64,000 nt of DNA from a virus. Taxonomy: Duplodnaviria; Caudoviricetes. Below, piece by piece: positions 20,958-63,310 of this stretch. The notes under the pieces are model-generated. The model saw nothing but the letters and a program-made list of their open reading frames with translations. It made no database searches and was not told where the DNA came from. The position numbers and the translations under genes were made by a program. The first letter of the stretch is position 1. Every line of letters begins with the position of its first letter. The stretch lies in the IMG/VR virus record IMGVR_UViG_3300031992_000011; one strand, given 5' to 3'.

Positions 20958-21569
20958 ATGAAAAGAAGAATAAGACTGACTGAGGGCGACTTAAAGAGGA
21001 TAGTGAGCGAGAGCGTTAAGAGGGTGCTGAAAGAAGGCAAGTTTATTAACAACAAACGATTAAGTGCAGAACAGCTGCCCAACTACAAAGGGCGCGAGCG
21101 TTATAAAAACAACTTCAGACAAAGCGACCAAGTTCAATTGACTCCACACCATGAAATGAGCCTTTATGATATTATCTTTAGAAAGGATTTAATTCGTTTA
21201 AAGAAGTTGGTGCGTGAGAAATATGGCATCAATCCATCTTCATTACACACCAGAATTATCGGCAATGAGTTTTCAAACCCAAATCAAGATGTCAGCATAG
21301 AAATACCAGCCAATGAAGCATTTAAAATTGATAATGTCAAAGAATTTATGGACATGGTTTCCAAACTGCATTTCCAAAGTGCGCCATATGATGAATTTCA
21401 AGAACGTGGGACTATATGCTTAATGTACGATAACAAAGATAATCCAGATTATGAAGATGGTTACTCAGCACACGGAATCAGGGTCAACAATATGGGTAAA
21501 GCCTATCAACCTATCGAATATGAACCAACAGATTGGTATGAACTTAATGATAAAGGCTATTTTGATTAA
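20958..21569 (+). CDS. Orphan protein with RLTEGDLKRIVSESVKRVLKE leader (putative head-packaged protein)
   Basis: Start reassigned to MKRRIRL, downstream of TATTTAT; stop overlaps the transposase stop (ttaa 21566-21569). Confidence 0.7.
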   Translation: MKRRIRLTEGDLKRIVSESVKRVLKEGKFINNKRLSAEQLPNYKGRERYKNNFRQSDQVQLTPHHEMSLYDIIFRKDLIRLKKLVREKYGINPSSLHTRIIGNEFSNPNQDVSIEIPANEAFKIDNVKEFMDMVSKLHFQSAPYDEFQERGTICLMYDNKDNPDYEDGYSAHGIRVNNMGKAYQPIEYEPTDWYELNDKGYFD

Positions 21570-21784
21570 GCTGCTCTCATTCCAACACCAATCTCACTCC
21601 ACCGCAGAATGAGTCCAATGGACTTGCTGAACATATGGGCGAATCGCATTGATTCGCTCATTTTTCTTGTGTTCCAGCGGAACACCGCCTCGTTCAAGTA
21701 CTGTTGAAGGTGACCGTCACTCACGTTGTGGTAACAGCCTGTTATCATCCTGCGGAAGTGGCTCCAGAAACCCTCGATTGAGTT
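21566..21784 (-). pseudogene. IS1595-family DDE transposase, C-terminal fragment
   Basis: NSIEGFWSHFRRMITGCYHNVSDGHLQQYLNEAVFRWNTR matches N-IE-FW---KR---G-YH-VS--HL--Y--E--FR-N; N-terminal part absent. Confidence 0.9.
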
Positions 21785-21850
21785 TCCGCATATGGGACTG
21801 CGGAATGTCCAAGTACGTGTGGAGGAAAGAATGACCGGAAAGCAGTTGTT

Positions 21851-23530
21851 TTAACCGTGCGAGTTTCCGTCTGATGTTTCTTTGGTGAAAAAGACGATAA
21901 GTTCATCGTCTTTGATGCGGTTGACTTTTCTGCTGTCTGCGTTGTTGTCGTATGACATCTGATATGTCAGCAGTGTTTCATATTTGTAAGTTTCCATCCA
22001 TGAGATTTCCTTGTAGTTGATGTCCAATCCATACGAACTCAGATAATCATTGGAAACACCTATTTTCTTGAACGCGTCAAGTACCTGTTGGACGGTGCCG
22101 GTTCTCAGAAGTTTATATATATATTGATACATCGAATTCACGTTCTTGCTCCTTGAATGCGTGTAGTCGCTTCCGTAGTCATGGTATTCCATCACCTCTC
22201 TCGCAATTCCGTCGGCAAAGGTTTGCATATCCCCTAATCTTTCTCCGCTGAACAGTACAGCGAACTTGTCCTTGTGTGGATCGGTTATGATTATTTTCGC
22301 ATATCCCACCGTAACGACAAGGAATCGCACTTTCTTGTCATAGTCAATGTTGTCGTAGAAGTCTGTCGGCCGCATGCCGTGCCTCTCATAATATGCGTCA
22401 TCTACCATTTTTGATTTGATTGAGCAAGCTTCGCGGAACGTGTTTGCCCCAAGCTCTTTGAAATAGTCGCTCATCATCTGTACCACTTTTGAGGTGAACC
22501 TGTTCGGCCGGTCTGAAAGGTCCCTGCGCACGGAGTCAAGATGTTCTGCAACATAATTGAATGTGGTTCTGTCCCTTTCCCCCTTTACGTCTCCGATGAT
22601 TGAAGTGTATTCCGAAAGTCCGTACTTATCCAGCAGTGACGAAACTCCTTCACCCAACTTTTTCCCGTCATACCGAGGGTTTCCGAACACGATGAACAGA
22701 AGTACTGACTTCAGGAGTCCGATGTTGTTCTTGCTGATGCTTCCGTTGTACACCACGTCCGGATACCCCCATTGTTCGAACTTTTTCCATATATCGACCG
22801 GTTTTCCTCCCGGATTGTTGAAATCCCGCTCGTTGTCAAATATTCTTACCAACGATTGGAGCGGTGTGCGCATGACCGAGACCGCGATCTGCCGGAATTT
22901 CTCGTTGTTGTCCAAGTCCGGCATGAAGAAGTCGACTGACTTTATCATCTTATGGGCGTCGTGTATGGCTGAGTGGTATGAGAACACGCGGTCTTCGGAC
23001 TCGTTCCCGCTATGGAACTGTCGTTCGTTGTCAAAGTTGTGGGATACGTAATCTTCCACCTCTTCAGGTGTCGCGTCCGGATTTTTCATTTTGTACGATG
23101 TCGCCACGTACCTCCTCTGTGCTTCTTGTGACTTCTCGTCCTTCGGCATTGTCTCATAATACTTGAACTTGTCGTTGAACACGCCGCCGCCCCAATAGTT
23201 GACAGGTTTTCCTTTCAGCGTGTTGGAAAGCGTGTTTCCGTCAAGAACAATCCTGACGCCGCCGTTTTTGCTCCCTCTCGAATACCCGAACCGTGAACTG
23301 TATATTCTGGTGCACGACAGGTAGAATTTGCGTTTTTTGTCATAATTGTCGGAATCCTTCGCATAAGCCGACTGAAGATATATCACGTCACCTTTGCAAA
23401 TTTCAAAACCGTTGCTGAGCGAAGTGAAGTGGTACAGCGTTTGACTCAATCCTTCATTTAGCAGACATTGTGTTCGGAAGGATTCGTCGATTCTCCTCAT
23501 AAGGTCCTTTATCTCGTTTAGACTGCCCAT
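21851..23530 (-). CDS. Orphan protein with N-terminal ADP-ribosyltransferase-like motifs after an LLNE|G site
   Basis: LYHFTS...FYLSCTR...ESEDR order fits an H-S-E ART-like fold; start reassigned to MGSLNEIK. Confidence 0.5.
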   Translation of the reverse strand: MGSLNEIKDLMRRIDESFRTQCLLNEGLSQTLYHFTSLSNGFEICKGDVIYLQSAYAKDSDNYDKKRKFYLSCTRIYSSRFGYSRGSKNGGVRIVLDGNTLSNTLKGKPVNYWGGGVFNDKFKYYETMPKDEKSQEAQRRYVATSYKMKNPDATPEEVEDYVSHNFDNERQFHSGNESEDRVFSYHSAIHDAHKMIKSVDFFMPDLDNNEKFRQIAVSVMRTPLQSLVRIFDNERDFNNPGGKPVDIWKKFEQWGYPDVVYNGSISKNNIGLLKSVLLFIVFGNPRYDGKKLGEGVSSLLDKYGLSEYTSIIGDVKGERDRTTFNYVAEHLDSVRRDLSDRPNRFTSKVVQMMSDYFKELGANTFREACSIKSKMVDDAYYERHGMRPTDFYDNIDYDKKVRFLVVTVGYAKIIITDPHKDKFAVLFSGERLGDMQTFADGIAREVMEYHDYGSDYTHSRSKNVNSMYQYIYKLLRTGTVQQVLDAFKKIGVSNDYLSSYGLDINYKEISWMETYKYETLLTYQMSYDNNADSRKVNRIKDDELIVFFTKETSDGNSHG

Positions 23531-23639: not shown

Positions 23640-25055
23640 CTATTTGTGTGCCGCCGAATCTTCTGTCTTCTCATTGATGAGCATGTTGATGAACGACTGC
23701 ATCTCATATGCGGACACGTAGTAATATCCGCCGTTCTTTTTGTGCCCAATCTGTCTTGCAAATTCCCAATATCTGTCCATGTTCCGTCTGAACAGCGATA
23801 TTGCACTATAGAACAGCATAGGACTCATTCTTGATTTGATGTAGACTCCGCCATATACACCGGTGCCCGCCGGAGCATGTGTTATTTTTGGTTTGTTGTC
23901 AGCGGAAATCAGACTTCCGACGGCGTATTTCTCGACGAATGTGTCGGATATCGCCTGTGAACGCCCGTAGAGCCACCAATTTTCCTTGGTTGTGTCTTTC
24001 CCGAGTTCTTCTGCGATATCCTCAAGGTAGAACATTGTGTTTTCGCCCATCTCATCCATTGACTTCGGCGCGCCTGATGCGGTGTACGGAAAAATGATGT
24101 TCGTGCGGGTTCCTTTCGACGCTTTTACACAATGTATGCATGATTCAAGCGTGTCGGCAATCTCATTGTCTTTGACCACGAACATCTTGTCGGCGAGTGT
24201 TGCGTATCCGTTCTTGACCTCTATCCCTGTCGCGTCGTCATGATGCGACAACACGTTGCGGACGAGTTCCGGCTGTTCACAAAAATAATATTTATCGTCA
24301 ATTTCACAGTCCTTTGTCGCTATTCTTACAGTTTTGTCGTCTTTTATGTGCCTGAACACAAAACTGTCACCCATATATCCCTTTTCCATCAGGAATATGG
24401 ACGGATATGTATTCGCGTCGTCAAACACCTTCTCGTGTCCGCAATCAATGACACCGATGATTGGGGCATTTTCCTTGATGTACTTCCTTAGGTCGCCACC
24501 GGACAGACTTGTTGTCCATGTTGACGGTGTTATGTAGCACATTCTTCCTCCGTCTGACAGCATGTCGATTCCGACTTTATAGAACGCTATGTACAAGTCG
24601 GTCATTCCTTTCCTGCTTATCCCTGCGGATTTTATCTTTGCCCTGAGTTCACCGAAATCCTGAACCTTCCGGTATGGTGGATTTCCGATGACAAAGTCCA
24701 TCTTGCTGTCGAACTTATGTTCATCGAGTGCGTCCCCGCATATGATGTCCCATTCGCTCGTGTTAACTTGTAACCCCAACGTTTTCGCCACGTCGCTCAG
24801 CCTGCATCTTGTGGTGTGTGCCAGTTCTGCGTCAATTTCTATGCCGTGGATATGTCCGACAACGTCACTGGCGTCTATTGCCTCACCTTTGTGTGCAAGT
24901 ATATACCGCTTGAGTGCTTCGGCAAGCATTTCCCCGTTTCCGCATGAGTTGTCTATGATGTGTTTATGGAGTATGTCTCCGTCTGAAACATACCCCATAA
25001 AATCTAACATCACACACACGGTCCACGATGGGGTGAAAACCTTTTCGTTAAGCAT
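23640..25055 (-). CDS. N6-adenine DNA methyltransferase (gamma class, Eco57I/TaqI-like)
   Basis: DNSCGNG SAM motif, GIEID, VIGNPPY, DLYIAF, G--CYITP. Confidence 0.9.
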   Translation of the reverse strand: MLNEKVFTPSWTVCVMLDFMGYVSDGDILHKHIIDNSCGNGEMLAEALKRYILAHKGEAIDASDVVGHIHGIEIDAELAHTTRCRLSDVAKTLGLQVNTSEWDIICGDALDEHKFDSKMDFVIGNPPYRKVQDFGELRAKIKSAGISRKGMTDLYIAFYKVGIDMLSDGGRMCYITPSTWTTSLSGGDLRKYIKENAPIIGVIDCGHEKVFDDANTYPSIFLMEKGYMGDSFVFRHIKDDKTVRIATKDCEIDDKYYFCEQPELVRNVLSHHDDATGIEVKNGYATLADKMFVVKDNEIADTLESCIHCVKASKGTRTNIIFPYTASGAPKSMDEMGENTMFYLEDIAEELGKDTTKENWWLYGRSQAISDTFVEKYAVGSLISADNKPKITHAPAGTGVYGGVYIKSRMSPMLFYSAISLFRRNMDRYWEFARQIGHKKNGGYYYVSAYEMQSFINMLINEKTEDSAAHK

Positions 25056-25260: not shown

Positions 25261-26898
25261 TCAAATCTCAATTGCCTCGATTTTCTTGATGACCTCGGCA
25301 TATCCGCGTGTGTTCGCACTGATGGTGTCAAAAATCTTGTCACTCCATCCGGCGATGTTAATGACGTTCCCCTTTGTGTTGAAGACGTTTGTGCTTCCGT
25401 ATTGTCTCAAGTTTACGACGACAAAGTGGCACTGCGGGTTGATGTGCATAAACTCCTTGAAAAGTTCCTGAAATCTTCCGCTTCTGTCACCAGAGGACAC
25501 ACCATACCACGGAGTCTTGCCGTTTTCTCCTATCTGACAATCCGAAAAAACGACAACGTTGTCCACACGTTTTTTCTCATTGACGACTGTACGCATGAAG
25601 TCATAGATTCCGGCTTCGGTGGCAGGTCCGCATTTCCTTCCTTCGTTGAAGGACTCCTCGTTGAACTCGAGCAGTCTTTTATTGCGGTCCACCTTGACCG
25701 GTATAAGACGGTCACCAAACAGGCCGATGTACACATCCTTCTGCCTCCAAGCAAGCATAGAACCGAACAGATTGCCGATCATCGCAGTTGTTGTCTTCGA
25801 GAACGCTGAAACCTTGGACGAACCTCCTCCGTCGCCTCGGCAGCTTCCGCTATGGTCGATCAACACAGCGACATTTCCGTCAAGACACGGGATGTTCTTG
25901 CACGATATTTCGATGGCGTCCTCAAGTGCCGACAGTACCTTCTGCACATTTTTCGACAACTCGTTTTTGACGTCAGATTCGAACATGATTGACGATTTGC
26001 TGTCTTTGTCCTCCATGCTTTCCACCTCATGGTATGCAGACGCAAAACGGAACGGAAGCAGACGCGAGTTGAGAATCTTCTTCTCGTTTCTGAGCGACTC
26101 GCACACTGTGTCAAGACTGTCCGGCGAATGCAGTATGATGTTACGCAGGTTGCGGACAAGGTTGAAGATCGGCATGCCGCCGACATTCTCAATCACCGAC
26201 TCGATTGCCTCCTTCTTCGCCTTCTCCTTTTCGTCCGCAGTCTTGGCATCTGAACCGCGCTTTGACATCTCCTTCTCGAGAATCTTGCTGTCATATAAGC
26301 CGTCAAGACTCTCACCCGCCATCAGTCGCCTGTACGCCTCCTCGTTCTTCTGTGTCGGCGTCGGATGTAGCAGGTTCACGAGGTCCACGAGCGACAGTTC
26401 GCGCCGCTCCATCTTGTATTTGTCAATACGGTACGGATCCATACCCTCAAGCACCGACTTGAAACCCTTCTTGATTGCGTTCGGAATCTTGCGGACAGGC
26501 TTGCCGCCTTCGCACTTGTTCATGCTCGCATAACACGACAGAATCTCCGACATGTCATCAGGACGCACGGCGATTTTCTCATAGAAACGCTTGCCCCACT
26601 CACTGCCGCTTATCTTTTGTGCGATGTATGCGGCGATGAGGTGCGTGACTGAACGCATGTTTCCGTCGTTTCTTGCATAAAGGGCAAGTTTTGCGGCAAA
26701 CAACGGGTCGGACTTGTCCAGCAGCGACTTGATGCGCTGTGTAGTCTCTTCCTCCTTCTCATAATACCCGTTCTGCAGGAATGTTGTCATTACCGTCGCC
26801 ACAAGTTCCTCCCTCGGGTCGAGTTTGTAGGCGCGCTCGCCCATGAAATTAACCTCTGTTGCCTCTCTCGGTGACTTTTTCTTGTTGAATTTAGCCAT
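25261..26898 (-). CDS. Ro60/Rsr-like TROVE-VWA RNA-binding protein
   Basis: ALYAR---NMRS, NLVRNLRN and LLPFRF (TROVE); VLIDHSGS MIDAS, FSDCQ and IAGWSD (VWA). Confidence 0.9.
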   Translation of the reverse strand: MAKFNKKKSPREATEVNFMGERAYKLDPREELVATVMTTFLQNGYYEKEEETTQRIKSLLDKSDPLFAAKLALYARNDGNMRSVTHLIAAYIAQKISGSEWGKRFYEKIAVRPDDMSEILSCYASMNKCEGGKPVRKIPNAIKKGFKSVLEGMDPYRIDKYKMERRELSLVDLVNLLHPTPTQKNEEAYRRLMAGESLDGLYDSKILEKEMSKRGSDAKTADEKEKAKKEAIESVIENVGGMPIFNLVRNLRNIILHSPDSLDTVCESLRNEKKILNSRLLPFRFASAYHEVESMEDKDSKSSIMFESDVKNELSKNVQKVLSALEDAIEISCKNIPCLDGNVAVLIDHSGSCRGDGGGSSKVSAFSKTTTAMIGNLFGSMLAWRQKDVYIGLFGDRLIPVKVDRNKRLLEFNEESFNEGRKCGPATEAGIYDFMRTVVNEKKRVDNVVVFSDCQIGENGKTPWYGVSSGDRSGRFQELFKEFMHINPQCHFVVVNLRQYGSTNVFNTKGNVINIAGWSDKIFDTISANTRGYAEVIKKIEAIEI

Positions 26899-27019: not shown

Positions 27020-27832
27020 TTAATTTTTGTTAAACTCACTAATTCTTTGATTACACAACTCAACATATTTGTCGTAAATCTCAGAACAGATGTAATTTAT
27101 GCCCAATTTTATGCACGCGAGCGCCGTCGTTCCGGTTCCTGCGAACGGATCAAACACAAGTCCTCCTTTCGGGCAGTATACATTTAACAGTTGTTCGCAT
27201 AGTTCCGTCGAATATGTCGCCTTGTGGATGGAGCATGGTCCGTCATTGTTCTTGGCCTCGACAAAATTCTGCACATTTTCGTAGTTTTTCTGTCCTGTCC
27301 CCTTTGACGTGGACACCACCTGCTTGTTTGTGGTGAATGTGCGGTACTCGTCCCTGCGGCAGAACACGAACACAGGCTCCCATATTCTGGTCAACTTGTT
27401 TGGACTTGCCGTGTTGGGCACCGCGTTCCTTTTCTTCCAAGCGATACAGTCGGCCACACAGAAATTTGTGCGGGTCTGTATTGCGGCGATAAGGTTCCAC
27501 ATCGTGTCATGTGTGTTCACGCCGTAGTTTATGTTGTACAGCACAGTTCCGTTCTCTTTCAGTATGCGGTCGAACCCGTCAAATACGCCTACCGTCCAAT
27601 CCTCGTACTGCTCCGGTGTCAGATTGTCATTCAGGTCGACGTATCTCGTGCTGTACCTTCCCTTCTTGTGGTCGTTGAAGAAGTCGGTGTGTGACCTTGA
27701 CGTGTTATATGGAGGGCTTGTCAGCACGACGTCGACGGAATTTGGCGTCATGCGCTTCATGCAGTCAGAACAGTCTCCGTGCCATATTGTGTTCGGCGCT
27801 ATGGCGCACTCTGTTGTCAGTAATTTTTCCAT
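27020..27832 (-). CDS. N4-cytosine/N6-adenine DNA methyltransferase (beta class)
   Basis: VLTSPPY precedes FDPFAGTGTT; H-A--- motif. Confidence 0.9.
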   Translation of the reverse strand: MEKLLTTECAIAPNTIWHGDCSDCMKRMTPNSVDVVLTSPPYNTSRSHTDFFNDHKKGRYSTRYVDLNDNLTPEQYEDWTVGVFDGFDRILKENGTVLYNINYGVNTHDTMWNLIAAIQTRTNFCVADCIAWKKRNAVPNTASPNKLTRIWEPVFVFCRRDEYRTFTTNKQVVSTSKGTGQKNYENVQNFVEAKNNDGPCSIHKATYSTELCEQLLNVYCPKGGLVFDPFAGTGTTALACIKLGINYICSEIYDKYVELCNQRISEFNKN

Positions 27833-28617
27833 AATGTTTCCACCTTTGTCTTTTTCTTCCGGGTTCCGGTCACTGTGTTGACATCAAAGTTTATTTTCGT
27901 GAACCCAGCTGCCGTCAGCTGGTCATACATCTCGCAGTCATATCCGCTTATGAGCAGTTTTGCCTTGCTGTTTAAGCATTCTTCTATGAATTTCTGTTGC
28001 ATCTCGTTGTCCATGTCAACGCTATACCTCGTATCCCCTCTTGTGTCCCAAGCATATGGCGGATCGCAGTACATGAACGACCTGTCATACTCCCGGTAGC
28101 GGTTCATCAGCGCTATCCCGTCACGATGCATTATGACCATGTGACTCATCCTCTGATGGAATTCAACAAGTTTGTCCACTGTGCTGAGGTAGTCCGACAC
28201 TGACTTCGCCATCCCCCTCCTCACGACCATATTAACAGACATCCCGCCTATGCCGTTGTGCGATGTCCGGTTGACGTAAAAGAAATAGAACGCCCGCTCA
28301 ACCTCGCTGATTCCTCTGTCCTTGAGTCTCTCGCGGAACTCGTCACGGAACTGCTCGGAGTACGGGTAAATGTCACATTTCGACTTGAACTCCACGAACA
28401 TGTCCTTGTCCGCTATGACCTTGTACAAGGTGTACACATTTTCGTCGAGGTCGTTGTATATTTCAATCTCGGGTATATGTTCCATGTGGAACCCTATCGC
28501 ATAGGAACCGCCGAACGGTTCTATGTATGTCGTGTATTGTGACGGATCCGGGAAGTGCGGTATTATCTTGCCGAACATACCGTTCTTTCCGCCGAAATAT
28601 TTGATTGGGGCGTTCAT
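27817..28617 (-). CDS. Dam-like (D12 class) adenine methyltransferase
   Basis: YFGGK, YIEPFGG, YNDLD, YCDPPY. Confidence 0.9.
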   Translation of the reverse strand: MNAPIKYFGGKNGMFGKIIPHFPDPSQYTTYIEPFGGSYAIGFHMEHIPEIEIYNDLDENVYTLYKVIADKDMFVEFKSKCDIYPYSEQFRDEFRERLKDRGISEVERAFYFFYVNRTSHNGIGGMSVNMVVRRGMAKSVSDYLSTVDKLVEFHQRMSHMVIMHRDGIALMNRYREYDRSFMYCDPPYAWDTRGDTRYSVDMDNEMQQKFIEECLNSKAKLLISGYDCEMYDQLTAAGFTKINFDVNTVTGTRKKKTKVETLWKNY

Positions 28618-28733: not shown

Positions 28734-29267
28734 ATGAATGATTGGATAGATGATGATAGATTGAATAAGTTGTCCACACAGTTCAGCAAAATTTTCCATA
28801 ATTTTCGCGACCGTTTGGAAGATATGGTAACTTCAAACACACTGATGCGTTCGGTGGTTTCAGAAATTACAAATTGTCGTTGGACTCGGAATTACGACAT
28901 TGTATTCGACTTGTATCTAAAGACCAGAAACCGTCGTTTCATCGACGATCTGTCGCGATTGTTCCAACGTGAGCTGGGTGACATGTACGCATTCCTGCGC
29001 CTGCGTGATGGAAGCGACATCCGCCGAGATAACCCGTCAAACATTCGTGAAACGTACAAAGGAATGAAACTGACCGTGGCGTTCAATCCGGACGAAATGG
29101 CGGAGACAAGGTTGACGCAGCACGAAAAAGGTTTTGTTGACAGTCTAGATTCGATGTCGGCCAAATATTCGGCGCCCGGACATGAGTTCAAGTCCAACGC
29201 GAATGAGTCTGTCGTCCGCCGATTGGTAGAGGAAAGTGTCGCTTCCGCCATACGCAGACTGTTGTGA
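28734..29267 (+). CDS. Orphan protein with C-terminal NE|SVVRRLVEESVASAIRRLL tag
   Basis: 177 aa; own late-type motif; tag resembles the leaders of 20958 and 56318. Confidence 0.65.
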   Translation: MNDWIDDDRLNKLSTQFSKIFHNFRDRLEDMVTSNTLMRSVVSEITNCRWTRNYDIVFDLYLKTRNRRFIDDLSRLFQRELGDMYAFLRLRDGSDIRRDNPSNIRETYKGMKLTVAFNPDEMAETRLTQHEKGFVDSLDSMSAKYSAPGHEFKSNANESVVRRLVEESVASAIRRLL

Positions 29268-45503: not shown

Positions 45504-45506
45504 GAT

Positions 45507-48355: not shown

Positions 48356-48374
48356 ATTGAAAACGAAAGTTACA

Positions 48375-50312: not shown

Positions 50313-50337
50313 TATCTTATCGGAATATATCAAGACA

Positions 50338-53376: not shown

Positions 53377-53451
53377 TTGACTTAGACTACTTTTTACGGT
53401 AAAGTTGGCGGCGCCGGAGAAAAAAATCCGGGCCGCCATCATCGAACAAGA

Positions 53452-53458
53452 TATTTAT
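53452..53458 (+). promoter_or_regulatory. Putative late promoter TATTTAT
   Basis: Upstream of ATG 53496. Confidence 0.6.
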
Positions 53459-53495
53459 ATTGGAAAGATAACAAACTAAACCAATTAATATTAAT

Positions 53496-55343
53496 ATGGC
53501 AGCAGCAAGAGTTTTACAACTTCTTAGAAGCACAACAATTTATGACACTTTCGAACTCGCAGCGAGCGCGTTGAGAGGTCTGCAAGGTCGTAAAGACGGT
53601 GAGATCGTGTTGGCGAGGTACACACCTGTGACTGTAAACGGTGTCACAGTCGACACAGCAATCGGCGTATATCACGTTGCCGGCAATACCACAACATGCA
53701 CCGTCTTCCAAAGTTCGACAGAAATAGCGAAGAGACTGGACGACATTCAGTCGGAACTTGACGACACACAGACCGGTGCCGGTCTTGGTACTGATGGTTC
53801 TTATACCGTACCGGAAGAGAATGAGGCCGGTTTTGAGGTTCTCGGTGGTCAGAATGCCCCTGACAATCTCTATGATGCCATCATGAAACTGGCCGACGAG
53901 ATCGCCGGTATGGACTACTCATATAACACGAATGCCAGTGATACAACCGCAAGCGCGGCCGTGAACGACCGTTCAAAGGTTATCGCGTCAATCAGCGAGG
54001 TCAACGGTGACATCACTGTGGGCAGCACAGCGGCTAAGGACCTTCTCTTGACCAATTATACAAATGACGGCACAACCAATACAGGTTCAATCGTTCCTGC
54101 CGATACTGTCGAGAAGGCGTTTAACAAATTGGAGAACAAGGTTGGTGCGAACAAAATCACAAATGCAGACGGCTCAATCACTGTTACAGAACCTACCGGT
54201 TCCGCAACAACCACTGACATCAACGTCAACATAAAGACAGGTGAGAAGGTACTTCACAAGGATGGAAACGAAGGTCTGTGGACTGACATCAAGATCCAGA
54301 AGGTCATACCGACCGGAACTGCTGGCACTGACGAGATTCTCGACACGAATCTTGGTGCCAACGTCCGTGAGGCTTATCGACTGATGTCAAATAACGGAAG
54401 CGGAACCTATGTGCAACTTGGTAAGGATATCAATGTCTACAAGGACAGTTCTCTCATCAGTGTCCAACTCGGTACAATGGGAGACACACTCACCAACGAG
54501 GACGCAAACCAGAAGTCAGATGTTTCGACAATCGTTCCGGGTACAGGCGACGACGCTCTCGTGTTCGTGTACTACCTCGGTGACGAGAACAAGTACCAGA
54601 GGGCATCTATCAACGTCGAGAGTTTCCTGACAGATTCTGAATACGGTATCGGTCTTGCTGTAGAATCTGACGGAGCCGCCACAAACAGCAAGCGTGTCTA
54701 TGTCAAGAAAGACACAAATTCGGAGCAGGTTATCACTGCGTACAGCGAGAGTGGTAACACTACAGCAGATGTTCTCACAATAGGCAATGATGGTGTCAAG
54801 GTAGCGAACATCCAGGCCGCTATTGACGCTGCCGTCGGAAGGGCGCAGACAACAATCAATACCACCGTCAACAAGTCAGGTGAGACTGTTGCGGATCCTC
54901 ACATCTCGATAGCGGAGACAACTGCGGACAACGGTTCGAAGAGTTACACATTCTCAGAGACCGACATCGATTCACAGGCGAGGGCGATCGCTGCCGAGAA
55001 GGTTCTTTCTGATTCAATCAACGGAACCGGTTCTTACAACGAGACAACCGGCGTCGCCACCCCATACGCTTCACCCGCTAACGCGACATACGCAAATACA
55101 AACAATGTAAAGGGTGACATCGCCGCACTTGATGCAGCAGCCGCTGACGGTCTTAATTTGGTCACAAGCGCGAATAAAGCGATTGTCGTTGGCGCAAAGG
55201 AAAACAAGCAACAGGAACTCACACTGACACTTGACACTACGACGCAAGGAACTGGCATGGAGTTGACAAGCGTGGACAACGCTCTCACAATCACCAACGC
55301 CGGACTGTTCCTCTCAAACACTTGGGACTGTGGCACGTACTAA
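53496..55343 (+). CDS. Fibre/structural protein
   Basis: QSELDDTQTGAGLGTDGSY motif; Thr/Asn-rich; C-terminal WDCGTY. Confidence 0.65.
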   Translation: MAAARVLQLLRSTTIYDTFELAASALRGLQGRKDGEIVLARYTPVTVNGVTVDTAIGVYHVAGNTTTCTVFQSSTEIAKRLDDIQSELDDTQTGAGLGTDGSYTVPEENEAGFEVLGGQNAPDNLYDAIMKLADEIAGMDYSYNTNASDTTASAAVNDRSKVIASISEVNGDITVGSTAAKDLLLTNYTNDGTTNTGSIVPADTVEKAFNKLENKVGANKITNADGSITVTEPTGSATTTDINVNIKTGEKVLHKDGNEGLWTDIKIQKVIPTGTAGTDEILDTNLGANVREAYRLMSNNGSGTYVQLGKDINVYKDSSLISVQLGTMGDTLTNEDANQKSDVSTIVPGTGDDALVFVYYLGDENKYQRASINVESFLTDSEYGIGLAVESDGAATNSKRVYVKKDTNSEQVITAYSESGNTTADVLTIGNDGVKVANIQAAIDAAVGRAQTTINTTVNKSGETVADPHISIAETTADNGSKSYTFSETDIDSQARAIAAEKVLSDSINGTGSYNETTGVATPYASPANATYANTNNVKGDIAALDAAAADGLNLVTSANKAIVVGAKENKQQELTLTLDTTTQGTGMELTSVDNALTITNAGLFLSNTWDCGTY

Positions 55344-55429: not shown

Positions 55430-56233
55430 CTAATCAATCCACGGGAACTCCCTGACTATGGCGTTGACGAAGTGGAACTTCTGCAGTTTCTTCATCGCGA
55501 TGCACCTGACCTCCGAGCGCCAGTCGTGTGTCCTGATGAAGTCCACAACTTTTTCCCGTCCTCTCAAATTGTCGTCCACCTTTATCTTGTACTCCGCGGA
55601 GTATCTCTCGCCGTCCGAAAGTATCTTGCCGCAGCTTCCGTCACCCCAAAGGCACACGCGCACATCGAACGGCGCGTCGTCATACCCATTCGAATCATTC
55701 CGCACGAAGTTCACTCGCTTGAGGTTGGTCTTTGGCCTTTCGTTTGTTCCTCCTCCCTCAGGCCGCCTGTACACGTTGAAGCAGCAGTGCAGTTTGCGTC
55801 CGCTGTATGTCTCTTCGCCGAGGTCGATCGACTCTATCAGGTCGAATTCGTACAGCGACTGTGTGTTCCATAGTTGGCTGATAGGAAGTATCATCGCCAC
55901 GTAGTCACCGCACGATACAGCCTTCTTGAAGAATTTCTGCGCCAGGTTCATCCGGCTGCCGTAAGGAGGGTTTCCGAGCGTGAGCCGTCCCTTCTTGTAC
56001 GGCATCTCATATGACAGGTAGTCGGCTTCTATGACGCGTGGGTCGTCAGTTTCCGGTCTGATGTCAATCCCTATGTCCACGCGCACGTTGTCGCTGTGCA
56101 TGAACGCTCCGTCACCGCAGCTTGGTTCCACGACCTCTGTGACCGCGCCCATGTCAACGCACGCTGTCAGTATGCCGAGACATCTGTCCACGACATGACT
56201 CGGTGTGTAGTATTTGTCGTCATTCAGTTTCAT
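55430..56233 (-). CDS. N6-adenine DNA methyltransferase-like protein
   Basis: DKYYTP, VEPSCGDGAF, GNPPY; start reassigned to MKLNDDK. Confidence 0.85.
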   Translation of the reverse strand: MKLNDDKYYTPSHVVDRCLGILTACVDMGAVTEVVEPSCGDGAFMHSDNVRVDIGIDIRPETDDPRVIEADYLSYEMPYKKGRLTLGNPPYGSRMNLAQKFFKKAVSCGDYVAMILPISQLWNTQSLYEFDLIESIDLGEETYSGRKLHCCFNVYRRPEGGGTNERPKTNLKRVNFVRNDSNGYDDAPFDVRVCLWGDGSCGKILSDGERYSAEYKIKVDDNLRGREKVVDFIRTHDWRSEVRCIAMKKLQKFHFVNAIVREFPWID

Positions 56234-56317: not shown

Positions 56318-56788
56318 ATGTACAAAAGAAGGAGTGTGACGTTAAGTGAAAGTCGTCTCAGACGTCTTATCTCAGAGGCGGTCAGAAAAGCACTGACGGA
56401 GAGTAATGAGGACACCAGATGGTACAACAATCAGGAGTCGGATCCCGGTGTCGGCAGTGAGTTGGATTTTTCTCCGCAGTTGTGGACAGAAATCAGATTC
56501 GTGCAGGGCGGAGATGATGACTACGAGGAAATTGACCGTATGTTCTGCGGCGACGATGATGTGTACTGTGAGGGCAACTCGCAGCCTGTGATAGAGTATT
56601 TGGCGCAGTGGGATGACGGCGAGGGAAACGTCGTCGAGGACGAGCCGAGGATAGCGAGGAACGACACCGTTTACGATGACGAGAACGGAGAATACATATT
56701 AAGGTACAACTCGTCGGTAGGTGGATGTTACCTGCTCTACAGGAAAGCGTCACCGCAAGAAGTTGACTGGTATCAGAACAATCGTTGA
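56318..56788 (+). CDS. Acidic orphan protein with TLSESRLRRLISEAVRKALTE|S leader
   Basis: 156 aa; leader aligns with that of 20958. Confidence 0.7.
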   Translation: MYKRRSVTLSESRLRRLISEAVRKALTESNEDTRWYNNQESDPGVGSELDFSPQLWTEIRFVQGGDDDYEEIDRMFCGDDDVYCEGNSQPVIEYLAQWDDGEGNVVEDEPRIARNDTVYDDENGEYILRYNSSVGGCYLLYRKASPQEVDWYQNNR

Positions 56789-56876: not shown

Positions 56877-57731
56877 TCAATAGTTGGTTACAAGCACCTC
56901 GTCAGCGCCTCCCCTGTCCTTCCTGTGGTAAGAGCTGTTGCTGTATGAGTTGTTCAGATGATGCACGTTGTATCTTTCGGACCACACGGAGAGTATCTCA
57001 TTGGTCTTCCCCTTGCTCTGCAGTGCGTTCGACAACGCGAACTTTATCCCTTTTTCGTCGAGACAGTCGAGCAGGGACAGAAGTTTTCTCTCGCACGTTT
57101 CGTTCCATCCGCCGTTCTCGTTGTATGTGGCGCATGTTATCAGATATGGCGGGTCGCAGTACACGAAATCATCGTTTCCGAGTTTGTCGAGTTTGAGCTC
57201 GCCGAAGTCCTTGCATGTGAACATAACGTCCATACTTGTTATTCTCTTGTGAAACTCCGTCAGGTTTTTTCTGATGGCGTCGTTGAACTTGCTCCGGTTC
57301 TTTCCGAACGGCATGTTGAATCCTCCGTCCTTGTTGAACCTTATCTGGTGGTTGAACGAGTAGCATATGAGCACAAACAGGTCTAACGGGTCTTTCTCCG
57401 TAGAGTTGTTGTAATCTGACCTGAATCTCAGGTATGCATCCGAGTCCGTCATGGTCAGGCCATATTCCTCTATTCTACTGTCCACGCGCCCTATCACCTC
57501 GTCAATGCTTAGTGACTTGAACTTGTTGTATATGCCGATAACGCCGTTATCAGCGTCGTTGGCTACAATTCTGTCCGCCGTGACGTTCACCGCCACATTC
57601 CCGCCTCCCGTGAAAAGGTCGACAAACATTCTCACCTTGTCCGGGAATAGCGGCAATATCTGCTTGAGCAGTTTATATTTCCCGCCGGTGTAGTTCATCG
57701 GCGATTTTACTAATTTTTCCGGTATTGTCAT
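56877..57731 (-). CDS. dam: Dam-family DNA adenine methyltransferase
   Basis: NYTGGK, VDLFTGG, RFNKDGGFNMPFG, YCDPPY, FALSN, EVLVTNY. Confidence 0.9.
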   Translation of the reverse strand: MTIPEKLVKSPMNYTGGKYKLLKQILPLFPDKVRMFVDLFTGGGNVAVNVTADRIVANDADNGVIGIYNKFKSLSIDEVIGRVDSRIEEYGLTMTDSDAYLRFRSDYNNSTEKDPLDLFVLICYSFNHQIRFNKDGGFNMPFGKNRSKFNDAIRKNLTEFHKRITSMDVMFTCKDFGELKLDKLGNDDFVYCDPPYLITCATYNENGGWNETCERKLLSLLDCLDEKGIKFALSNALQSKGKTNEILSVWSERYNVHHLNNSYSNSSYHRKDRGGADEVLVTNY

Positions 57732-57746: not shown

Positions 57747-60700
57747 TCATTCATAAGAGAAGTCACTGAAATCCTTGTCGAGGATGTCGAACAGGTTGCC
57801 AATCACGACACCGTGTTTCCTTGATATGAAATTGTTTGTGCTCGGGTCCTCGTCTACAATGTCCGCGATGCATTTCGGCAGTATGCCTTCTTCAATCAGA
57901 GAATCAACGTCGGTTCGCTTGAGCGAGGCAATTGCCTTGTTGTACTTCTCAATCTCCTCTTTGACCTCATCTGATTTGAGTCGTTCCATGCGTTCGGTGT
58001 AGTCTTGTTTTATTTCGTTCCAGTCCATGCCTATCTCACGCCAATACGGAGGTTCTTCGTTTATTGACGTCCAAAACTTTATCTCCTTATCCTCCATCGT
58101 CATCAGCTGTTCGTACGTGTCTTGGTCGGATGCGCTCAGAGGAAAACCGCTGACGAGCCTTGTTTCCTCTTCGGTGAATGCCCTCCTGTCCTTCGGATCG
58201 GTTATAAGTATGTTGCTGACCTCCTTTCCCTTGTCGTTTATCCGTGACCTGACCTCAGGGGCGAAACAGACAAGCAGCGTTGATATGCGGCTGTTGAACA
58301 TGTCGACATACTTCGCGACATTGTATTCAAACATGTCGTCGCAGTAATGCTCTTCCTCGTCCTCAACGATGTTGTTCGGAAGAAGCACGCAGTTGAACAC
58401 AATCTCGTCCTCCTCGGACACCGGCACACCGTAATGTTTCCTTCCCCACTGGGTTATTTCCATGGATTTCACTGACGGGTCCGCCTTTTTCGCCTTATTG
58501 TACAGTCGCTCAATCTCACGCGTGACCTCAACCTTTCCGCCACCGTCCGAAGGTATGAAGTATCGCGTCACGCGTTTCACGTCACTGTCTGATTTCTTCT
58601 TGCCGGTGTTGATGTAGTATATGGAGTCACCCATGTTCACGTCAAGACCCTCCTTTATTGCGAGCTCGTACCACGCCTGCCGCGACTTCTTCGTGCCCGC
58701 CTTTGTGCGCTGAAGGCATGCCTCCTTGTATGCCTTTATGCTCGTCTTTATCTTGCCGACAGTGGCGATATCCTTCAGTGGTATGCGGAGATTGTATATG
58801 TCCTCGAGATAGTCGTAGTAGTATTCTATGAAGTCGTGCCCGCGGTTCTCAAGCAGCATGCGTATCGCCTTGTCGAGGAATTTCTCGATATATTTCGGCA
58901 TCTTCTTGGACTTGATGCTGTTTCCGACAAGTTTGACTGACCCGTCGTCAAGAAGGTCAGAGTATACCTTCCGCCGGTAGTTCGCCGAAGCAGGGACGAA
59001 CTCGTCAATTCCGAGACCCATCTTGTTGACGCCGTCATAGTACTTGTTGTTCAAGAAAAGGTCCTCGAACTCGCATACGTCGGCCTCGACGCCGGTGTAT
59101 TCCTTCCCCTTCACACTGTTGCGTCCGAGACCCTTGCCGATGTATGGGTTGTCGTCTGTGTATCTGAAAGAGTCCGGCATCTTGAAGTTGAAACCGTCGG
59201 TGTCCCCCACGATAGGTTCGTATCCAAGATTCTTGAAATGATGTATCATCAGTCTGAGGCACTGTCTGCCTATCGTCGTCGTTTTCTCCGCAGCGACAAT
59301 GTCACTGAATGGGAACACGGAACCTGAACCGAATGAACCGAAAAATCCGTTACAAATCACCTTCTGTGCCGCCTGAAGTCCGTCATAGAAGGTGGATTTC
59401 GCCGCGTCGCCCAATTTTGCGTACTTTTTCTTCAGACCCTTGTTGTGTTCGCGCTGGTCGAGCATGTAACCGAGAAGCATCAGCATCACGTCGTCTATGT
59501 CGGCCTCGGCCTTGATGTTGAAGGACAGCAGAATCGACGGATAAAGACTGTTGTAGTCAAGTTTCACAACATTGTCGACAAAACCGACCTTGAGAAGTCT
59601 TGACAGTCCGCCCGTGAACGGTCTGCTGTCGATGAGTCTCGGTATCGCCGAGTCGTGCTGATAGTACCATGCGAGCATGATATATTTCCACACGGCCGCT
59701 GTTCCCATTGTGCAAACCTTGTCGTATGACACCGGCAGAAGTTTGCTGACGAAGTAGTTCGTGGTGTTGTACTGAAGTTCGACCTTGTCCGTCTCCCAAA
59801 GGTCGTCCAGCAGGTATCTCTGAACGATGTACCGACCGGTAACCCAAGTGAATTTCTCGCCCGTCTCCTTGTCCGTCGCGCCGTCATAATCCGTTGTATA
59901 TCTGTCCCTCATGCTGTCGCTGAACCTGAACCAGTGCCCATTCTCGTCATTGAACGCATACACACGTTGTTCGTCCGACCATGTCTCGTTGATTATCTTG
60001 CCGGGCACGTACACCCTGTTTTTCTTGGCTATTCCCGAGTACTTCGTCACGTATTTCAGTGAGGCCGACTTCATGTTGCTGTTGATTGCCATGGCCCTTC
60101 TGACCGCAAACAGCGAGTCGGTCAGATGGTATCCCCACATGATTGTCGGGTTGTAGTACTCCATCTCTCCGCCGAGTTTGAGAACCTTAGGCTTCGACTT
60201 CTTGTACACTCCCTTGGGGAAGTAAGGGTCTCCGAACTCATTGAGACCTCCACACCCGTTCACCATCAGTCTGACGTCGATGAAGTTCCAGTCGAAGTTC
60301 TCGACGTTGTGGCCTGTGATGATGTCCGGTTGTATCTGTTTGATTATCGTGAAGAATTCCTTGACGGCAAGAACTTCGTTTTCATGCTTTTCATCCGCAG
60401 TTCCGCCTGACACTGTTATGATTTTTTCAAACCCCTTGTTTGTGCGTATTCCTATCTGGTCGATGGTGTCATGTTCCGGATCGAGACCGCTTGTCTCGAG
60501 GTCGAACTCCAACCTCACAAGGTCGTCATAATTGTCGTATCCCTTGAACTGTCGCTTGCCGGTTGATATCATGTACTGTTCGACAGGGGAGACGGATATG
60601 TAGTTCCTGACCTTGTCGTCGTCGCTGTACACGGGCACGCCCCCTTTCTCGAAGAACGACATGAACTCGCTGTAGGTCATCGCGGTCTTTGCGAAGAACA

Positions 60701-61031
60701 TCAGGTTGTATCCGTTCTGTGTCCGTTCAGGCACCGTCCCGTCACGGCGCGCTGTCTTGAGTGACCTCACACCGATGTGCATTGACCTCATTTTCTCGAT
60801 TATCTCCGTGCGGTTTCCGCGATACAGACGTCTTGCCGCGTCCTGCCTCGCCCACAGGAACGGAAGGAACGCCTCCTTCTTGACGCGCTTCACGCCTTTG
60901 TCGTCGCGGTAGATGATTGACACCTTGTCGTCGTTGTAACCGCACTCGAACTTGATGATGTGCTCCATCGGGTCGGTGCCGGCGAAGAATTCGTCTATCT
61001 GCTGTTTTAACGTCACATTCTCGTTTTCCAT
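57747..61031 (-). CDS. polB: Family B DNA polymerase with 3'-5' exonuclease
   Basis: FDLET (ExoI), GHNVENFD (ExoII), DYNSLYPS (motif A), K---NGFFG (motif B), GDTDG (motif C); start reassigned to MENENV. Confidence 0.95.
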   Translation of the reverse strand: MENENVTLKQQIDEFFAGTDPMEHIIKFECGYNDDKVSIIYRDDKGVKRVKKEAFLPFLWARQDAARRLYRGNRTEIIEKMRSMHIGVRSLKTARRDGTVPERTQNGYNLMFFAKTAMTYSEFMSFFEKGGVPVYSDDDKVRNYISVSPVEQYMISTGKRQFKGYDNYDDLVRLEFDLETSGLDPEHDTIDQIGIRTNKGFEKIITVSGGTADEKHENEVLAVKEFFTIIKQIQPDIITGHNVENFDWNFIDVRLMVNGCGGLNEFGDPYFPKGVYKKSKPKVLKLGGEMEYYNPTIMWGYHLTDSLFAVRRAMAINSNMKSASLKYVTKYSGIAKKNRVYVPGKIINETWSDEQRVYAFNDENGHWFRFSDSMRDRYTTDYDGATDKETGEKFTWVTGRYIVQRYLLDDLWETDKVELQYNTTNYFVSKLLPVSYDKVCTMGTAAVWKYIMLAWYYQHDSAIPRLIDSRPFTGGLSRLLKVGFVDNVVKLDYNSLYPSILLSFNIKAEADIDDVMLMLLGYMLDQREHNKGLKKKYAKLGDAAKSTFYDGLQAAQKVICNGFFGSFGSGSVFPFSDIVAAEKTTTIGRQCLRLMIHHFKNLGYEPIVGDTDGFNFKMPDSFRYTDDNPYIGKGLGRNSVKGKEYTGVEADVCEFEDLFLNNKYYDGVNKMGLGIDEFVPASANYRRKVYSDLLDDGSVKLVGNSIKSKKMPKYIEKFLDKAIRMLLENRGHDFIEYYYDYLEDIYNLRIPLKDIATVGKIKTSIKAYKEACLQRTKAGTKKSRQAWYELAIKEGLDVNMGDSIYYINTGKKKSDSDVKRVTRYFIPSDGGGKVEVTREIERLYNKAKKADPSVKSMEITQWGRKHYGVPVSEEDEIVFNCVLLPNNIVEDEEEHYCDDMFEYNVAKYVDMFNSRISTLLVCFAPEVRSRINDKGKEVSNILITDPKDRRAFTEEETRLVSGFPLSASDQDTYEQLMTMEDKEIKFWTSINEEPPYWREIGMDWNEIKQDYTERMERLKSDEVKEEIEKYNKAIASLKRTDVDSLIEEGILPKCIADIVDEDPSTNNFISRKHGVVIGNLFDILDKDFSDFSYE

Positions 61032-61096
61032 AATGTCGATAGTTGTTTGGTACCTGCAGCCGCACAAATACGGCATCGGTCATTATACTTTTTCCG

Positions 61097-61205: not shown

Positions 61206-61212
61206 TATTTAC
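61206..61212 (+). promoter_or_regulatory. Putative late promoter TATTTAC
   Basis: Upstream of ATG 61217/61226. Confidence 0.5.
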
Positions 61213-61216
61213 AGGT

Positions 61217-63310
61217 ATGGTTATCATGTTGTCAGAAAACAGTTTTGACCGCAAGGTGAACAAATTCCTGAGCGGTTACACGGGCGGTGGGTTCTCGTCG
61301 GTGCGCGAGTTCCTGCTTAAGGGACTCTACGGGAAATTACCTGAGATGAGATGCATCAAAAATCCAGAGACAGTTTCTGACGTGGTCCGATGGTTTTTCA
61401 ACCCGGACGGAAGCGTGAAGAATGCCGAATATGTGAATGATTTCCGTGCGATACTCAAGTCGCTCATAGATAAAGACGGGGTTGACAAGATACAGAATTT
61501 CACGCACGGTTTTGAACTTCTGTCATTCATGAAAACTTTCGGACATCTGACACCGCGCGAAAAGAACCATATCCCGCGCAACTCGTCAAGAAAGTCAGTA
61601 AAGGCGGACAACGGTTACACTGTAACAAGGATAGATTCGTTCGATGAGATGACGCGTGCGCCGTTCGGCGACAGCTGGTGCATCGGTCAAGACCGCGAAT
61701 GGTGGGACGAATTCGCTGACGAGTCGGTTTCCACTGTATATATGGTGGTGAGGTCTGACGCAGCGCAAGCAAGGCCGTCCACAATGATGGATGACGACGA
61801 AGAGGTCACCGCAGACGAGTATTTCTCCGGAATTGACAGTTACACAGATTCGCTGCGTAGCGGAAAGTGGGGGTCTCTCGGTTCAGGAAGGTATCCGTAC
61901 GACAGTTACGGCATGTCCGCGATGGTTGTGATAAGTTACGAGAATGGTATGCATGAAGTGTGGTCGAGGTACAATATGAGTGGAAAGGACGGAGACTATC
62001 TGAGCAAGGGTCAGATGTCCAAACTACTCGGAGCACCATTCGAGACTCTTTTCCCGTACGTCAACTACACCATCAGCGAAAGTGCGCTGAACGAAAGCGA
62101 ATACGCCTACCATCTGACCGGCAGGGCGTCGGACGGGAGCAGAATCAACCATGACATGCGCCCTTACGGTAGCGAAGGCAGAGTGATGATGACGCAAGGC
62201 AGGGACACCGGCCATTTCGGGAGCGGGACTTACTTCTCCACATATACGTTCGGGGGATATGAAGGTCTGCCAAAATACGGAGAAGGAAACAACGATCCGC
62301 ATTTCATACAGATCAAGGACGGCGTGTACCGTGTCGACCTGGACTTGTACAAGAACCTGTACAGGGTAGAGAGCGAGGACGAGGGGGACATTCTGTTCTC
62401 GACACTCAAGTTGCTCAATGAATTCTTTAACCGCGTGACGGACGAGGATTTTGTCGGCAAAAAAGAACCTAACTACAACAACGCCGGTATATACCAGGTC
62501 GTCAGACGGAACTGTTCGGTGCTCGGACTGAAGTGCCCGTCATACTATGAACTGACAAGGATGGCGCAGTCGCACAAGGGTGTGCAGTCGTTCTCGACCC
62601 TTTTCATGGAATGGAACGGTTTTAATGGCGTTAACGTATGCGGACTGTACAGGTTTGACAACACGACGCATGGTTCTGTGATATATGACCTGTCGAAGAC
62701 GGGGTCGGCAATAGTGCCCGTCAAGAAGGCGAAATACTTTAGTCCTAAAGTGACATCACGGTACGGTTACGTCAACACTGACGGGAAATATGACGATGAT
62801 GAGATGCTTGCCCTCACATCCCCATATTACATTCCGGAAGAAGAAACTTTCAAGAAAATGCCTTTCAACAGACAGGTGAGAATATTGAAAAACATGATCA
62901 GTAACGGCAAGGTTGTCCGTTTTTGGACGTTTGAATCGTGCTTTTCTGACAAACTTAAGAAACTATATCTTCAGTTGGTGTTCAACAACCGCGACAAGTC
63001 GCGATACGGTGAAATGGTCGGAAGTGTCATGTTGGGAGGTGATGATAAGTACAGATGGCGTAAATATATCGTGGAGAATGGTCTGTACTATTGGGCCGGA
63101 TATTACAACAACCGAGTGTCAGGTCTTACAGCCATAATGTCCGAACTTGACGACTGGAACCTTGATGACGACGAGAACAAGAAACAGAACCTTGCCAACT
63201 TCAAGAACCTCATGCGCTATGTGAAACGTCCGTTGGAACTTGATGAACTCACAGCAATCCACGAATACACAGGCGTGTGGTTTGACTATGACGGCAATCC
63301 TGAAAAATGA
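61217..63310 (+). CDS. Multidomain protein with internal ISE|SALNE|S linker and ADP-ribosyltransferase-like second domain
   Basis: AYHLTG...GHFGSGTYFST...GFNGVNV...SVIY resembles the YHG...G-FG-G-YF...GYDGI pattern of ART domains in phage polyvalent proteins. Confidence 0.55.
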   Translation: MVIMLSENSFDRKVNKFLSGYTGGGFSSVREFLLKGLYGKLPEMRCIKNPETVSDVVRWFFNPDGSVKNAEYVNDFRAILKSLIDKDGVDKIQNFTHGFELLSFMKTFGHLTPREKNHIPRNSSRKSVKADNGYTVTRIDSFDEMTRAPFGDSWCIGQDREWWDEFADESVSTVYMVVRSDAAQARPSTMMDDDEEVTADEYFSGIDSYTDSLRSGKWGSLGSGRYPYDSYGMSAMVVISYENGMHEVWSRYNMSGKDGDYLSKGQMSKLLGAPFETLFPYVNYTISESALNESEYAYHLTGRASDGSRINHDMRPYGSEGRVMMTQGRDTGHFGSGTYFSTYTFGGYEGLPKYGEGNNDPHFIQIKDGVYRVDLDLYKNLYRVESEDEGDILFSTLKLLNEFFNRVTDEDFVGKKEPNYNNAGIYQVVRRNCSVLGLKCPSYYELTRMAQSHKGVQSFSTLFMEWNGFNGVNVCGLYRFDNTTHGSVIYDLSKTGSAIVPVKKAKYFSPKVTSRYGYVNTDGKYDDDEMLALTSPYYIPEEETFKKMPFNRQVRILKNMISNGKVVRFWTFESCFSDKLKKLYLQLVFNNRDKSRYGEMVGSVMLGGDDKYRWRKYIVENGLYYWAGYYNNRVSGLTAIMSELDDWNLDDDENKKQNLANFKNLMRYVKRPLELDELTAIHEYTGVWFDYDGNPEK

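Follow-up and report, generated by a model that had tools for sequence, protein, structure and literature searches.

A portable 26-residue module, probably a protease-removed head-loading leader, on diverse late proteins of T4-like jumbo phages and in IS1595 elements

In bacteriophage T4, highly diverse internal proteins carry a capsid targeting sequence (CTS) that is conserved and that may be an evolutionary device for loading varied proteins into the head (PMC3012670, PMC9026906), and one of them, Alt, is processed at both ends, including the C-terminal one (PMC3012670, PMC9026906, PMC5694885). In giant phages of the SPN3US type, several Glu-ending motifs are cut per propeptide and Ser is preferred at P1' (PMC5694885, PMC10052503). 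Here we describe a module of ∼26 residues, called the tag below, which was recognized in a 64,000-nt stretch of viral DNA (IMG/VR record IMGVR_UViG_3300031992_000011, Duplodnaviria, Caudoviricetes; the whole stretch is referred to as the window) and which serves a very large and varied array of apparently late proteins as leader, linker or tail. The original prediction for this DNA had listed ten open reading frames (ORFs) of the window as carriers of a capsid-targeting tag and had presented them as a candidate new system. The feature itself is real and widespread; its presentation as a new system was overstated, given that a conserved CTS on diverse internal proteins is already established in T4 (PMC3012670, PMC9026906). 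The T4 loading principle is known, and what is new is the scale and a transposon that spreads tagged genes.

The T4 CTS (carried by IPI–IPIII and Alt and processed by gp21; Mullaney and Black, 1996) and the tag are alike in being short conserved leaders on unrelated, hypervariable proteins and in ending at an L/I-x-E site of the kind used by S77-type proteases. T4 and the tag-bearing phages also have in common a T4-type capsid protein, a scaffold and, as seen in relatives of the window phage, a protease, as well as apparently late expression of the genes concerned, and, as Alt illustrates, C-terminal propeptides exist as well. However, the CTS is ∼10 residues long and the tag 26, with no sequence similarity seen between them, and the tag, unlike the CTS, has two or three candidate cut sites and also stands inside proteins, at their C-termini and, as a linker, between the parts of polyproteins. 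Each genome has 9–34 tagged ORFs (whole records of five jumbo phages), compared with about four genes in T4, and the tag's cargo is mostly acidic, is spread by IS1595 elements and occurs in host chromosomes as well; the tag system, moreover, is known from sequence alone. We suggest that it works like the CTS, as an analogue or a very distant variant and not as a member by homology, since the tagged proteins had no match to internal head protein families in Pfam, PHROG or NCBIfam.

The propeptides of head and ejection proteins of the giant phages phiKZ, 201phi2-1 and SPN3US, which gp21-related proteases cut, resemble the tag in their several Glu-ending motifs and their preference for Ser at P1', and the occurrence of identical N-termini on diverged paralogues and of many processed head proteins in these phages is a further likeness (PMC5694885, PMC10052503). 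The Ser found after E9 and E18 of the tag matches the preference of the related SPN3US protease (PMC10052503). In contrast, the proteases of these phages prefer A/S/G at P3, where the tag has L/I/V (PMC5694885, PMC10052503). Their propeptides are mostly longer than 100 residues and do not form one portable module, and in gene order the phages are not gp23/gp22-type relatives of T4, unlike the tag-bearing ones. Polyvalent proteins of phages and conjugative elements, reportedly described by Iyer et al. in 2017, join several unrelated effector modules into a single precursor, believed to be delivered together with the DNA and then processed; by comparison, the modules of tag polyproteins are small and mostly of unknown fold and are separated by one conserved tag, not by dedicated protease domains.

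The canonical form of the tag is found at residues 1–26 (nt 20958–21035) of the product of tagged cargo gene 1 (20958–21569, plus strand; 203 aa), with [LIV]-x-E at E9, E18 and E26. With the first 40 residues of this product as query, matches were 85–92% identical in the leader and unrelated beyond it. The consensus of ∼26 residues, M-K-(K/R)-x-I-R-L-T-E-S-D-L-H-R-I-V-K-E-S-V-K-R-(I/V)-L-x-E, is a short extended segment followed by an amphipathic helix and contains two near-invariant L-x-E triplets. Across 107 distinct tagged proteins, conservation was highest at L7 (97%), E9 (99%), L12 (95%), V20 (93%), L/I24 (94%) and E26 (92%), and it stopped exactly after the Glu of the second near-invariant triplet, column entropy rising from 0.6 bits at E26 to 3.6–4.1 bits from the following residue onwards. 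As far as a motif read from sequence can tell, the tag thus ends in the L/I-x-E recognition motif. Ser occupied P1' in 68% of cases after E9 and in 84% after E18. A profile search of 1.84 billion representative proteins found the tag in 8,558 of them at E <= 1e-3 and in 1,436 at E <= 1e-10, and a scan of IMG/VR gave 43 tag loci, nearly all with the tag beginning at the Met of the ORF. No model of the tag is present in Pfam, PHROGs or NCBIfam.

Codon-position mismatches in the tag were 0.31, 0.22 and 0.58 for positions 1, 2 and 3, indicating that selection acts on the tag peptide, at the protein level. A DNA-level repeat was considered and rejected because third codon positions diverge far more than first and second ones.

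One short conserved leader thus heads otherwise unrelated proteins. The cargos, 109 in number, fell into 93 BLAST clusters (at least 93 unrelated families); Pfam matched 4 of 108 and PHROG matches were almost wholly absent too. Nor is the tag confined to N-termini, a point that the original prediction missed. In the relatives compared, which are T4-like phages of 330–400 kb, in-frame ORFs of the form 'domain A – tag – cargo B' exist, as do C-terminal tags, and polyproteins occur in which two to four tags serve as linkers. Among the 150 best-scoring representatives, a list that favours multi-tag proteins, 132 tag instances were N-terminal, 156 internal and 18 C-terminal, with a maximum of four in one protein. 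The same portability is seen for tagged cargo gene 2 of the window (56318–56788, plus strand; 156 aa), a single gene opposing methylase and polB genes, with a TATTTAT motif at −24 and a variant tag at residues 1–28 (nt 56318–56401): its cargo domain was found with a canonical tag, with a degenerate tag, untagged, and ahead of a tag and a second cargo. An AlphaFold2 model of the 56318 product (pLDDT 79) has a coil at residues 1–10, a free helix at 11–37, a disordered linker at 38–55 and a compact alpha/beta cargo at 56–155; the model had no fold match in the PDB.

The cargos themselves are poor in [LI]xE triplets. In a first set, 95 were observed compared with 113.9±9.5 expected from shuffles, and in an independent set of 285 segments, 134 compared with 192±12.6 (z −4.6). 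The control triplets [LI]xD, Ex[LI], [LI]xQ and [VA]xE were all enriched in the 285 segments, and in other small proteins of the same phages [LI]xE was itself enriched (z +6.5). Both window cargos, those of 20958 and 56318, are without any [LI]xE.

The window encodes a major capsid protein (MCP) of the T4 gp23 type (18664–20688, plus strand; 674 aa; Pfam Gp23, E 1e-70) with an N-terminal propeptide, adjoined by a scaffold homologue. Four of the seven [LI]xE sites of the MCP lie in its first 60 residues (nt 18664–18843), three of these N-terminal sites (I-K-E, L-Y-E and I-x-E|A) are conserved in relatives, and alignment to mature T4 gp23* places the start of the mature MCP near residues 45–61. 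An insertion of ∼300 residues in the MCP (about 110–420) cannot be aligned to T4 gp23. The scaffold-like acidic protein beside it (17254–18594, plus strand) has a tag-like segment at residues 28–50 (nt 17335–17403) that ends in I-L-S-E, and conservation of the scaffold is lost after this motif at residue 50. When 883 N-termini were scored in bits against the tag profile, the scaffold N-terminus reached 10.1 bits, the top score of any N-terminus outside the family. The original prediction had seen the same pattern in scaffold and MCP; the scaffold N-terminus does resemble the tag, whereas the MCP scored negative for the tag in spite of its N-terminal [LI]xE sites. Over the whole scaffold, cut sites were not significantly enriched in the window (z 0.7), and in relatives their enrichment was no more than marginal.

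A gp21-type prohead protease of the S77 family (PF03420) and a gp23-type MCP were both present in 4/4 near-complete relatives and in seven of the ten tag-bearing records tested, the other records being fragments. The MCPs of four of five tag-bearing jumbo-phage records are 63–72% identical to that of the window. In one relative, the ORF (G004:24120–24700, L083) directly after a 600-aa S77 protease gene (G004:22353–24155) opens with a half-tag whose last residues are L-N-E, and no ATG precedes this half-tag; translation may begin at a different codon, or the ORF may be continuous with that of the protease.

Both tagged genes, and the genes for the scaffold, MCP, tail tube, fibre and other structural proteins, are preceded by the motif TATTTA[TC], at a distance of 20–47 nt in the case of the structural genes; before 20958 it is found as TATTTAT at 20928–20934 (plus strand), 30 nt upstream of the start. 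Early genes (methylases, polB) carry TAnnTTTG instead, as seen before 27817–28617, 42210–42800, 55430–56233 and 57747–61076. TAnnTTTG is the Bacteroidota-type −7 promoter box described in the literature. The window has 21 copies of TATTTA[TC], ∼16 of them correctly placed and oriented before a gene. Its presence on six of the listed genes was confirmed, at 11–47 nt upstream of 20958, 23530, 28734, 46424, 56318 and 61217 (genes are named by their start position). A profile scan of the window and its relatives, as the original prediction had proposed, bore out the expected association, the motif preceding 20 of 41 tagged genes compared with 143 of 929 genes overall (15%) in three genomes, as well as the diversity of cargo described above. 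We infer from the motif that tagged genes are expressed late, together with head and tail genes.

Tagged genes are also passengers of IS1595-family elements, including copies in host chromosomes, which the original prediction did not note. They were found in bacterial assemblies that include the isolates Prevotella sp. MA2016, Prevotella sp. tf2-5 and Segatella bryantii DSM 11371. The layout of an element is inverted repeat, late-type motif and tagged ORF, convergent transposase, inverted repeat. A transposase or remnant was present at at least 17 of the 26 bacterial-genome tag loci, and TATTTA[TC] preceded the tagged ORF at 21 of the 26. The Prevotella copy of the transposase matches the IS1595 DDE model NF033547 (E 1.6e-58), and terminal inverted repeats, with ends that start GGCAA(C/T)TATATA (L121, L136, L142), bracket the tagged passenger and the transposase. 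In the window, a remnant of such a transposase (21569–21793, minus strand) corresponds to C-terminal residues 254–328 and shares 72–76% identity with copies in Prevotella chromosomes; it lies convergent to tagged gene 20958 and directly adjoins it, the same layout as in intact elements, and no IS1595 terminal inverted repeats were found in the window. Known IS1595-family elements with passenger genes likewise have a DDE transposase, terminal inverted repeats and variable ORFs between one end and the transposase. Unlike ordinary IS1595 passengers, the passenger here is a phage-type late gene with a tag, and the window has a transposase remnant of 75 residues only.

Near-identical copies of the element have in common the transposase, the ends and a ∼90-nt tag region, with unrelated DNA between them. 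Because these parts are kept and the intervening sequence is not, the comparison suggests cassette exchange, and we propose that IS1595 elements move some tagged genes between host chromosomes and phage genomes, new ones arising by exchange of cassettes. In Prevotella sp. tf2-5 (L136:4509–4534), the first 20 nt of another tag ORF lie, inverted, immediately beyond the right end of the IS1595 element, which seems to have inserted into, or recombined at, the start of a tag. In the chromosome of Segatella bryantii DSM 11371 (L135:2900–3361), an orphan 87-aa tagged gene lies between glycoside hydrolase and lipoprotein genes; its promoter and 5' leader hardly differ from those of tagged genes on phage contigs, and a transposase remnant follows downstream.

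We read the tag as a head-loading leader or linker that is removed by a protease, and assign this reading a probability of about 0.6. Through its helix, the tag would dock the protein to the scaffolding core while the prohead assembles; the scaffold N-terminus has a similar segment. The S77 (gp21-type) protease would then cut after the L-x-E triplets, which would free the cargo within the head and reduce the tag to small peptides, and at the next infection the cargo would be delivered along with the DNA. The sharp boundary of conservation, the selection on the peptide, the late-type motif, the co-occurrence with S77, the depletion of [LI]xE in cargo and the portability of the tag all fit a modular, late-expressed leader with protease sites, and removal by a Glu-specific protease with L/I at P3 fits as well. 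Given the resemblance to the scaffold, a head-loading function also fits. As for the modular, protease-cleavable capsid label originally envisaged, this indirect evidence agrees with a scaffold-like late leader, and the label is canonical in only two of the ten ORFs.

Several observations weigh against head loading. The similarity between tag and scaffold N-termini is weak (hhalign P 0.0016, probability 16%), and the S77 protease gene was not found within the window. The cargo is mostly acidic, with a median isoelectric point of 5.15, whereas T4 internal proteins are basic, and the tagged proteins lack the family matches to internal head proteins mentioned above. Within the tag, P1' after E26 is loose, with S/G/A in only ∼42%, and only 70% have Glu at position 18. 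With up to 34 genes in a genome and 8,558 clusters, the tagged proteins far outnumber any known set of head cargo; tblastn of the tag against GenBank phages gave no match; and in Prevotella and Segatella chromosomes the tagged genes lie within IS1595 elements, with no head genes nearby.

Alternatively, the tag could be a general docking or oligomerization helix, possibly also a cleavable linker, directed to some other common partner, for instance another assembly intermediate, a chaperone or a factor of the host; in that case the tag would not address proteins to the capsid, and the cargo would have its effect in the producing cell. The use of the tag at N-terminal, internal or C-terminal positions (132, 156 and 18 instances among the 150 representatives), the very large number of tagged genes per genome, the acidic cargo and the unconstrained P1' after E26 would all be expected of such a helix. 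We nevertheless regard it as unlikely, because it leaves unexplained why conservation ends exactly at a Glu with L/I at P3, why cargo specifically avoids [LI]xE, why 109 of 111 homologues of the 61217-type domain (see below) retain an [LI]xE|S junction regardless of upstream sequence, why the tag is similar to the scaffold N-terminus and why it co-occurs with S77 protease genes. That most of the listed set are chance Glu/Leu-rich amphipathic helices, with no common function beyond two clear paralogous leaders, appears extremely improbable. The scores of 23530, 45503, 46082 and 46424, just 0.9–2.9 bits (top 7–12% of N-termini), and the negative ones of 44538, 43591 and the MCP would agree with chance; yet the two canonical tags belong to a family of thousands, homologues tie 46424 and 61217 to it, and the best partial matches lie at protein termini and in the scaffold, not at random positions. 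For the whole family, a chance origin is refuted by the IMG/VR loci, the numbers of tagged ORFs in single genomes and the 8,558 proteins matched by the profile.

The association with IS1595 raises the question of whether the tag mainly serves the element or cassette exchange, as a recombination handle or as a peptide for transposition or its control, its link to the head being incidental. A transposase or remnant lies directly downstream at at least 17 of 26 bacterial loci, at several phage loci and in the window, near-identical copies have only the transposase, the ends and the ∼90-nt tag region in common, and at one locus the end of the element adjoins a truncated tag start. However, third positions of the tag diverge freely (0.58 compared with 0.22–0.31), so that it is the peptide and not the DNA that is conserved; most tagged genes of phages have no transposase nearby (none in G004, and two sites for 34 tags in G001); within the element, the tag is well removed from the inverted repeats; and the ORFs of the elements are preceded by the phage late-type motif (21 of 26). 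We therefore consider a primary role in transposition very improbable. A bolder extension of the head-loading reading, and a quite doubtful one, is that chromosomal tagged genes in IS1595 elements stay silent until infection by a jumbo phage and that their products are then loaded into progeny heads via the tag, IS1595 acting as a shuttle that exchanges cassettes of injected effectors between host and phage. If so, the transposon would hitch-hike on phage protein delivery or supply new effectors, or else the element would serve the host as a 'Trojan horse' by ruining progeny particles.

Should the tag prove to be a head-loading signal, thousands of protein families, nearly all without a known function, would stand out as probable effectors that jumbo phages of gut and rumen inject, and this would provide a catalogue for finding anti-defence and host-takeover proteins. 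It would also mean that the strategy of T4 can be extended to dozens of cargos in a virion and to precursors that are polyproteins, and would offer a defined 26-residue handle with which to package foreign proteins into Bacteroidota phages. The link to IS1595 points to a specific path along which cargo genes would pass between phages and hosts, and the culturable Segatella bryantii DSM 11371, which carries a copy of a tagged gene, is an entry point for experiments.

Within the window, all peptides quoted in the original prediction are present at the ORFs named. The background frequency of [LIVM]xE[SGA] across 52 window genes is 3.6 per 1000 aa, and five window proteins have at least two such motifs in their first 30 residues compared with ∼0.2 expected. 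When a profile of 41 natural tags was run against 1199 six-frame ORFs, strong matches were confined to two, 20958 (E 1e-17) and 56318 (E 1e-10), followed by the C-terminus of 28734 and the N-terminus of the scaffold (E 0.3–0.5). No homologue of the 20958 cargo was found in the closest relative. Thus, of the ten ORFs proposed to carry the tag, two have it in canonical form, while diverged or partial forms are seen at 46424, 46082, the C-terminus of 28734 and the junction of 61217 (three or four of these, judged by homologues); for 44538, 43591, 45503 and 23530 the claim is weak or unsupported.

The small late gene 46424 (46095–46424, minus strand; TATTTAT at −27) has a diverged tag in its first 21 aa (nt 46362–46424) and is tied to the family by a homologue in a relative (G001) that is itself a profile match. 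It heads a late operon reaching to 42935. The next gene, the conserved 46082 (45507–46082, minus strand), matches the first half of the tag with its first 14 residues (nt 46041–46082); in half-profile scans covering ∼19,000 positions (19,214), this N-terminus was the third-best match to the first half, and it lies at the canonical position. For the second half, the C-terminus of 28734 ranked third and scaffold residues 36–50 fourth. The accessory late gene 28734 (28734–29267, plus strand; TATTTAT at −36) has the matching stretch in its last ∼17 residues (within nt 29205–29264), and its assignment as a C-terminal tag is weak.

The two-part protein 61217 (61217–63310, plus strand; 697 aa) has the junction I-S-E|S-A-L-N-E|S (nt 62072–62098) ahead of a domain of ∼400 aa. 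This C-terminal domain (62096–63307, plus strand) belongs to a family of more than 400 proteins, which usually stand alone at ∼410–420 aa, and carries an invariant G-H-F-G-S-G-T-Y-F box. In 109 of 111 homologues, [LIVM]-x-E|[S/A/N] directly precedes the domain, and the junction is kept with any upstream part, be it a leader of 4 residues, a half-tag of 17, a full tag or a domain of 400 residues. Pfam and PDB sequence searches gave no match for the 61217 protein, and a model of its C-terminal domain (pLDDT 72, the first 75 residues being poor) gave no fold match; these results lend no support to an identification of 61217 as an ADP-ribosyltransferase.

Among the remaining candidates, the accessory late gene 23530 (21851–23530, minus strand; 559 aa) has three [LI]xE in its N-terminal 26 aa and a loose resemblance to the tag (0.9 bits). 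The profile scores of 23530, 45503, 46082 and 46424 (0.9–2.9 bits) lie within the top 7–12% of all N-termini, and we place 23530 and 45503 in a grey zone as possible tag carriers. The conserved late-operon genes 45503, 44912, 44538 and 43591 (42935–45503, minus strand) are syntenic in the closest relative and no tag was detected in them; homologues of 45503 and 44538 have short N-terminal L-x-E segments of uncertain meaning. As tag carriers, 44538, 43591 and the MCP were rejected on their negative profile scores. The six-gene late operon as a whole (42935–46424, minus strand) is syntenic with G004:90162–94515 in the closest relative and adjoins large, structural-looking genes (46474–55343); its products could be head-core or internal proteins.

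The window is a fragment of a very divergent, uncultured T4-like myovirus, the source phage being ∼330 kb (330,287 bp) in size, and its genes also include tail tube, fibre and baseplate-like genes, a family-B polymerase, a dUTPase and several DNA methylases. Megablast of the region found no close relative among GenBank phages. The host is probably Prevotella or Segatella of the rumen, because related tagged genes occur in rumen Prevotella assemblies. Five DNA methyltransferase genes within 35 kb (23640–25055, 27020–28617, 55430–56233 and 56877–57731) represent an unusually heavy investment in DNA modification. At 25261–26898 (minus strand), a 545-aa protein matches PHROG 850 ('RNA-binding protein') over its full length (E 6e-34) and may be of the Ro60/TROVE type.

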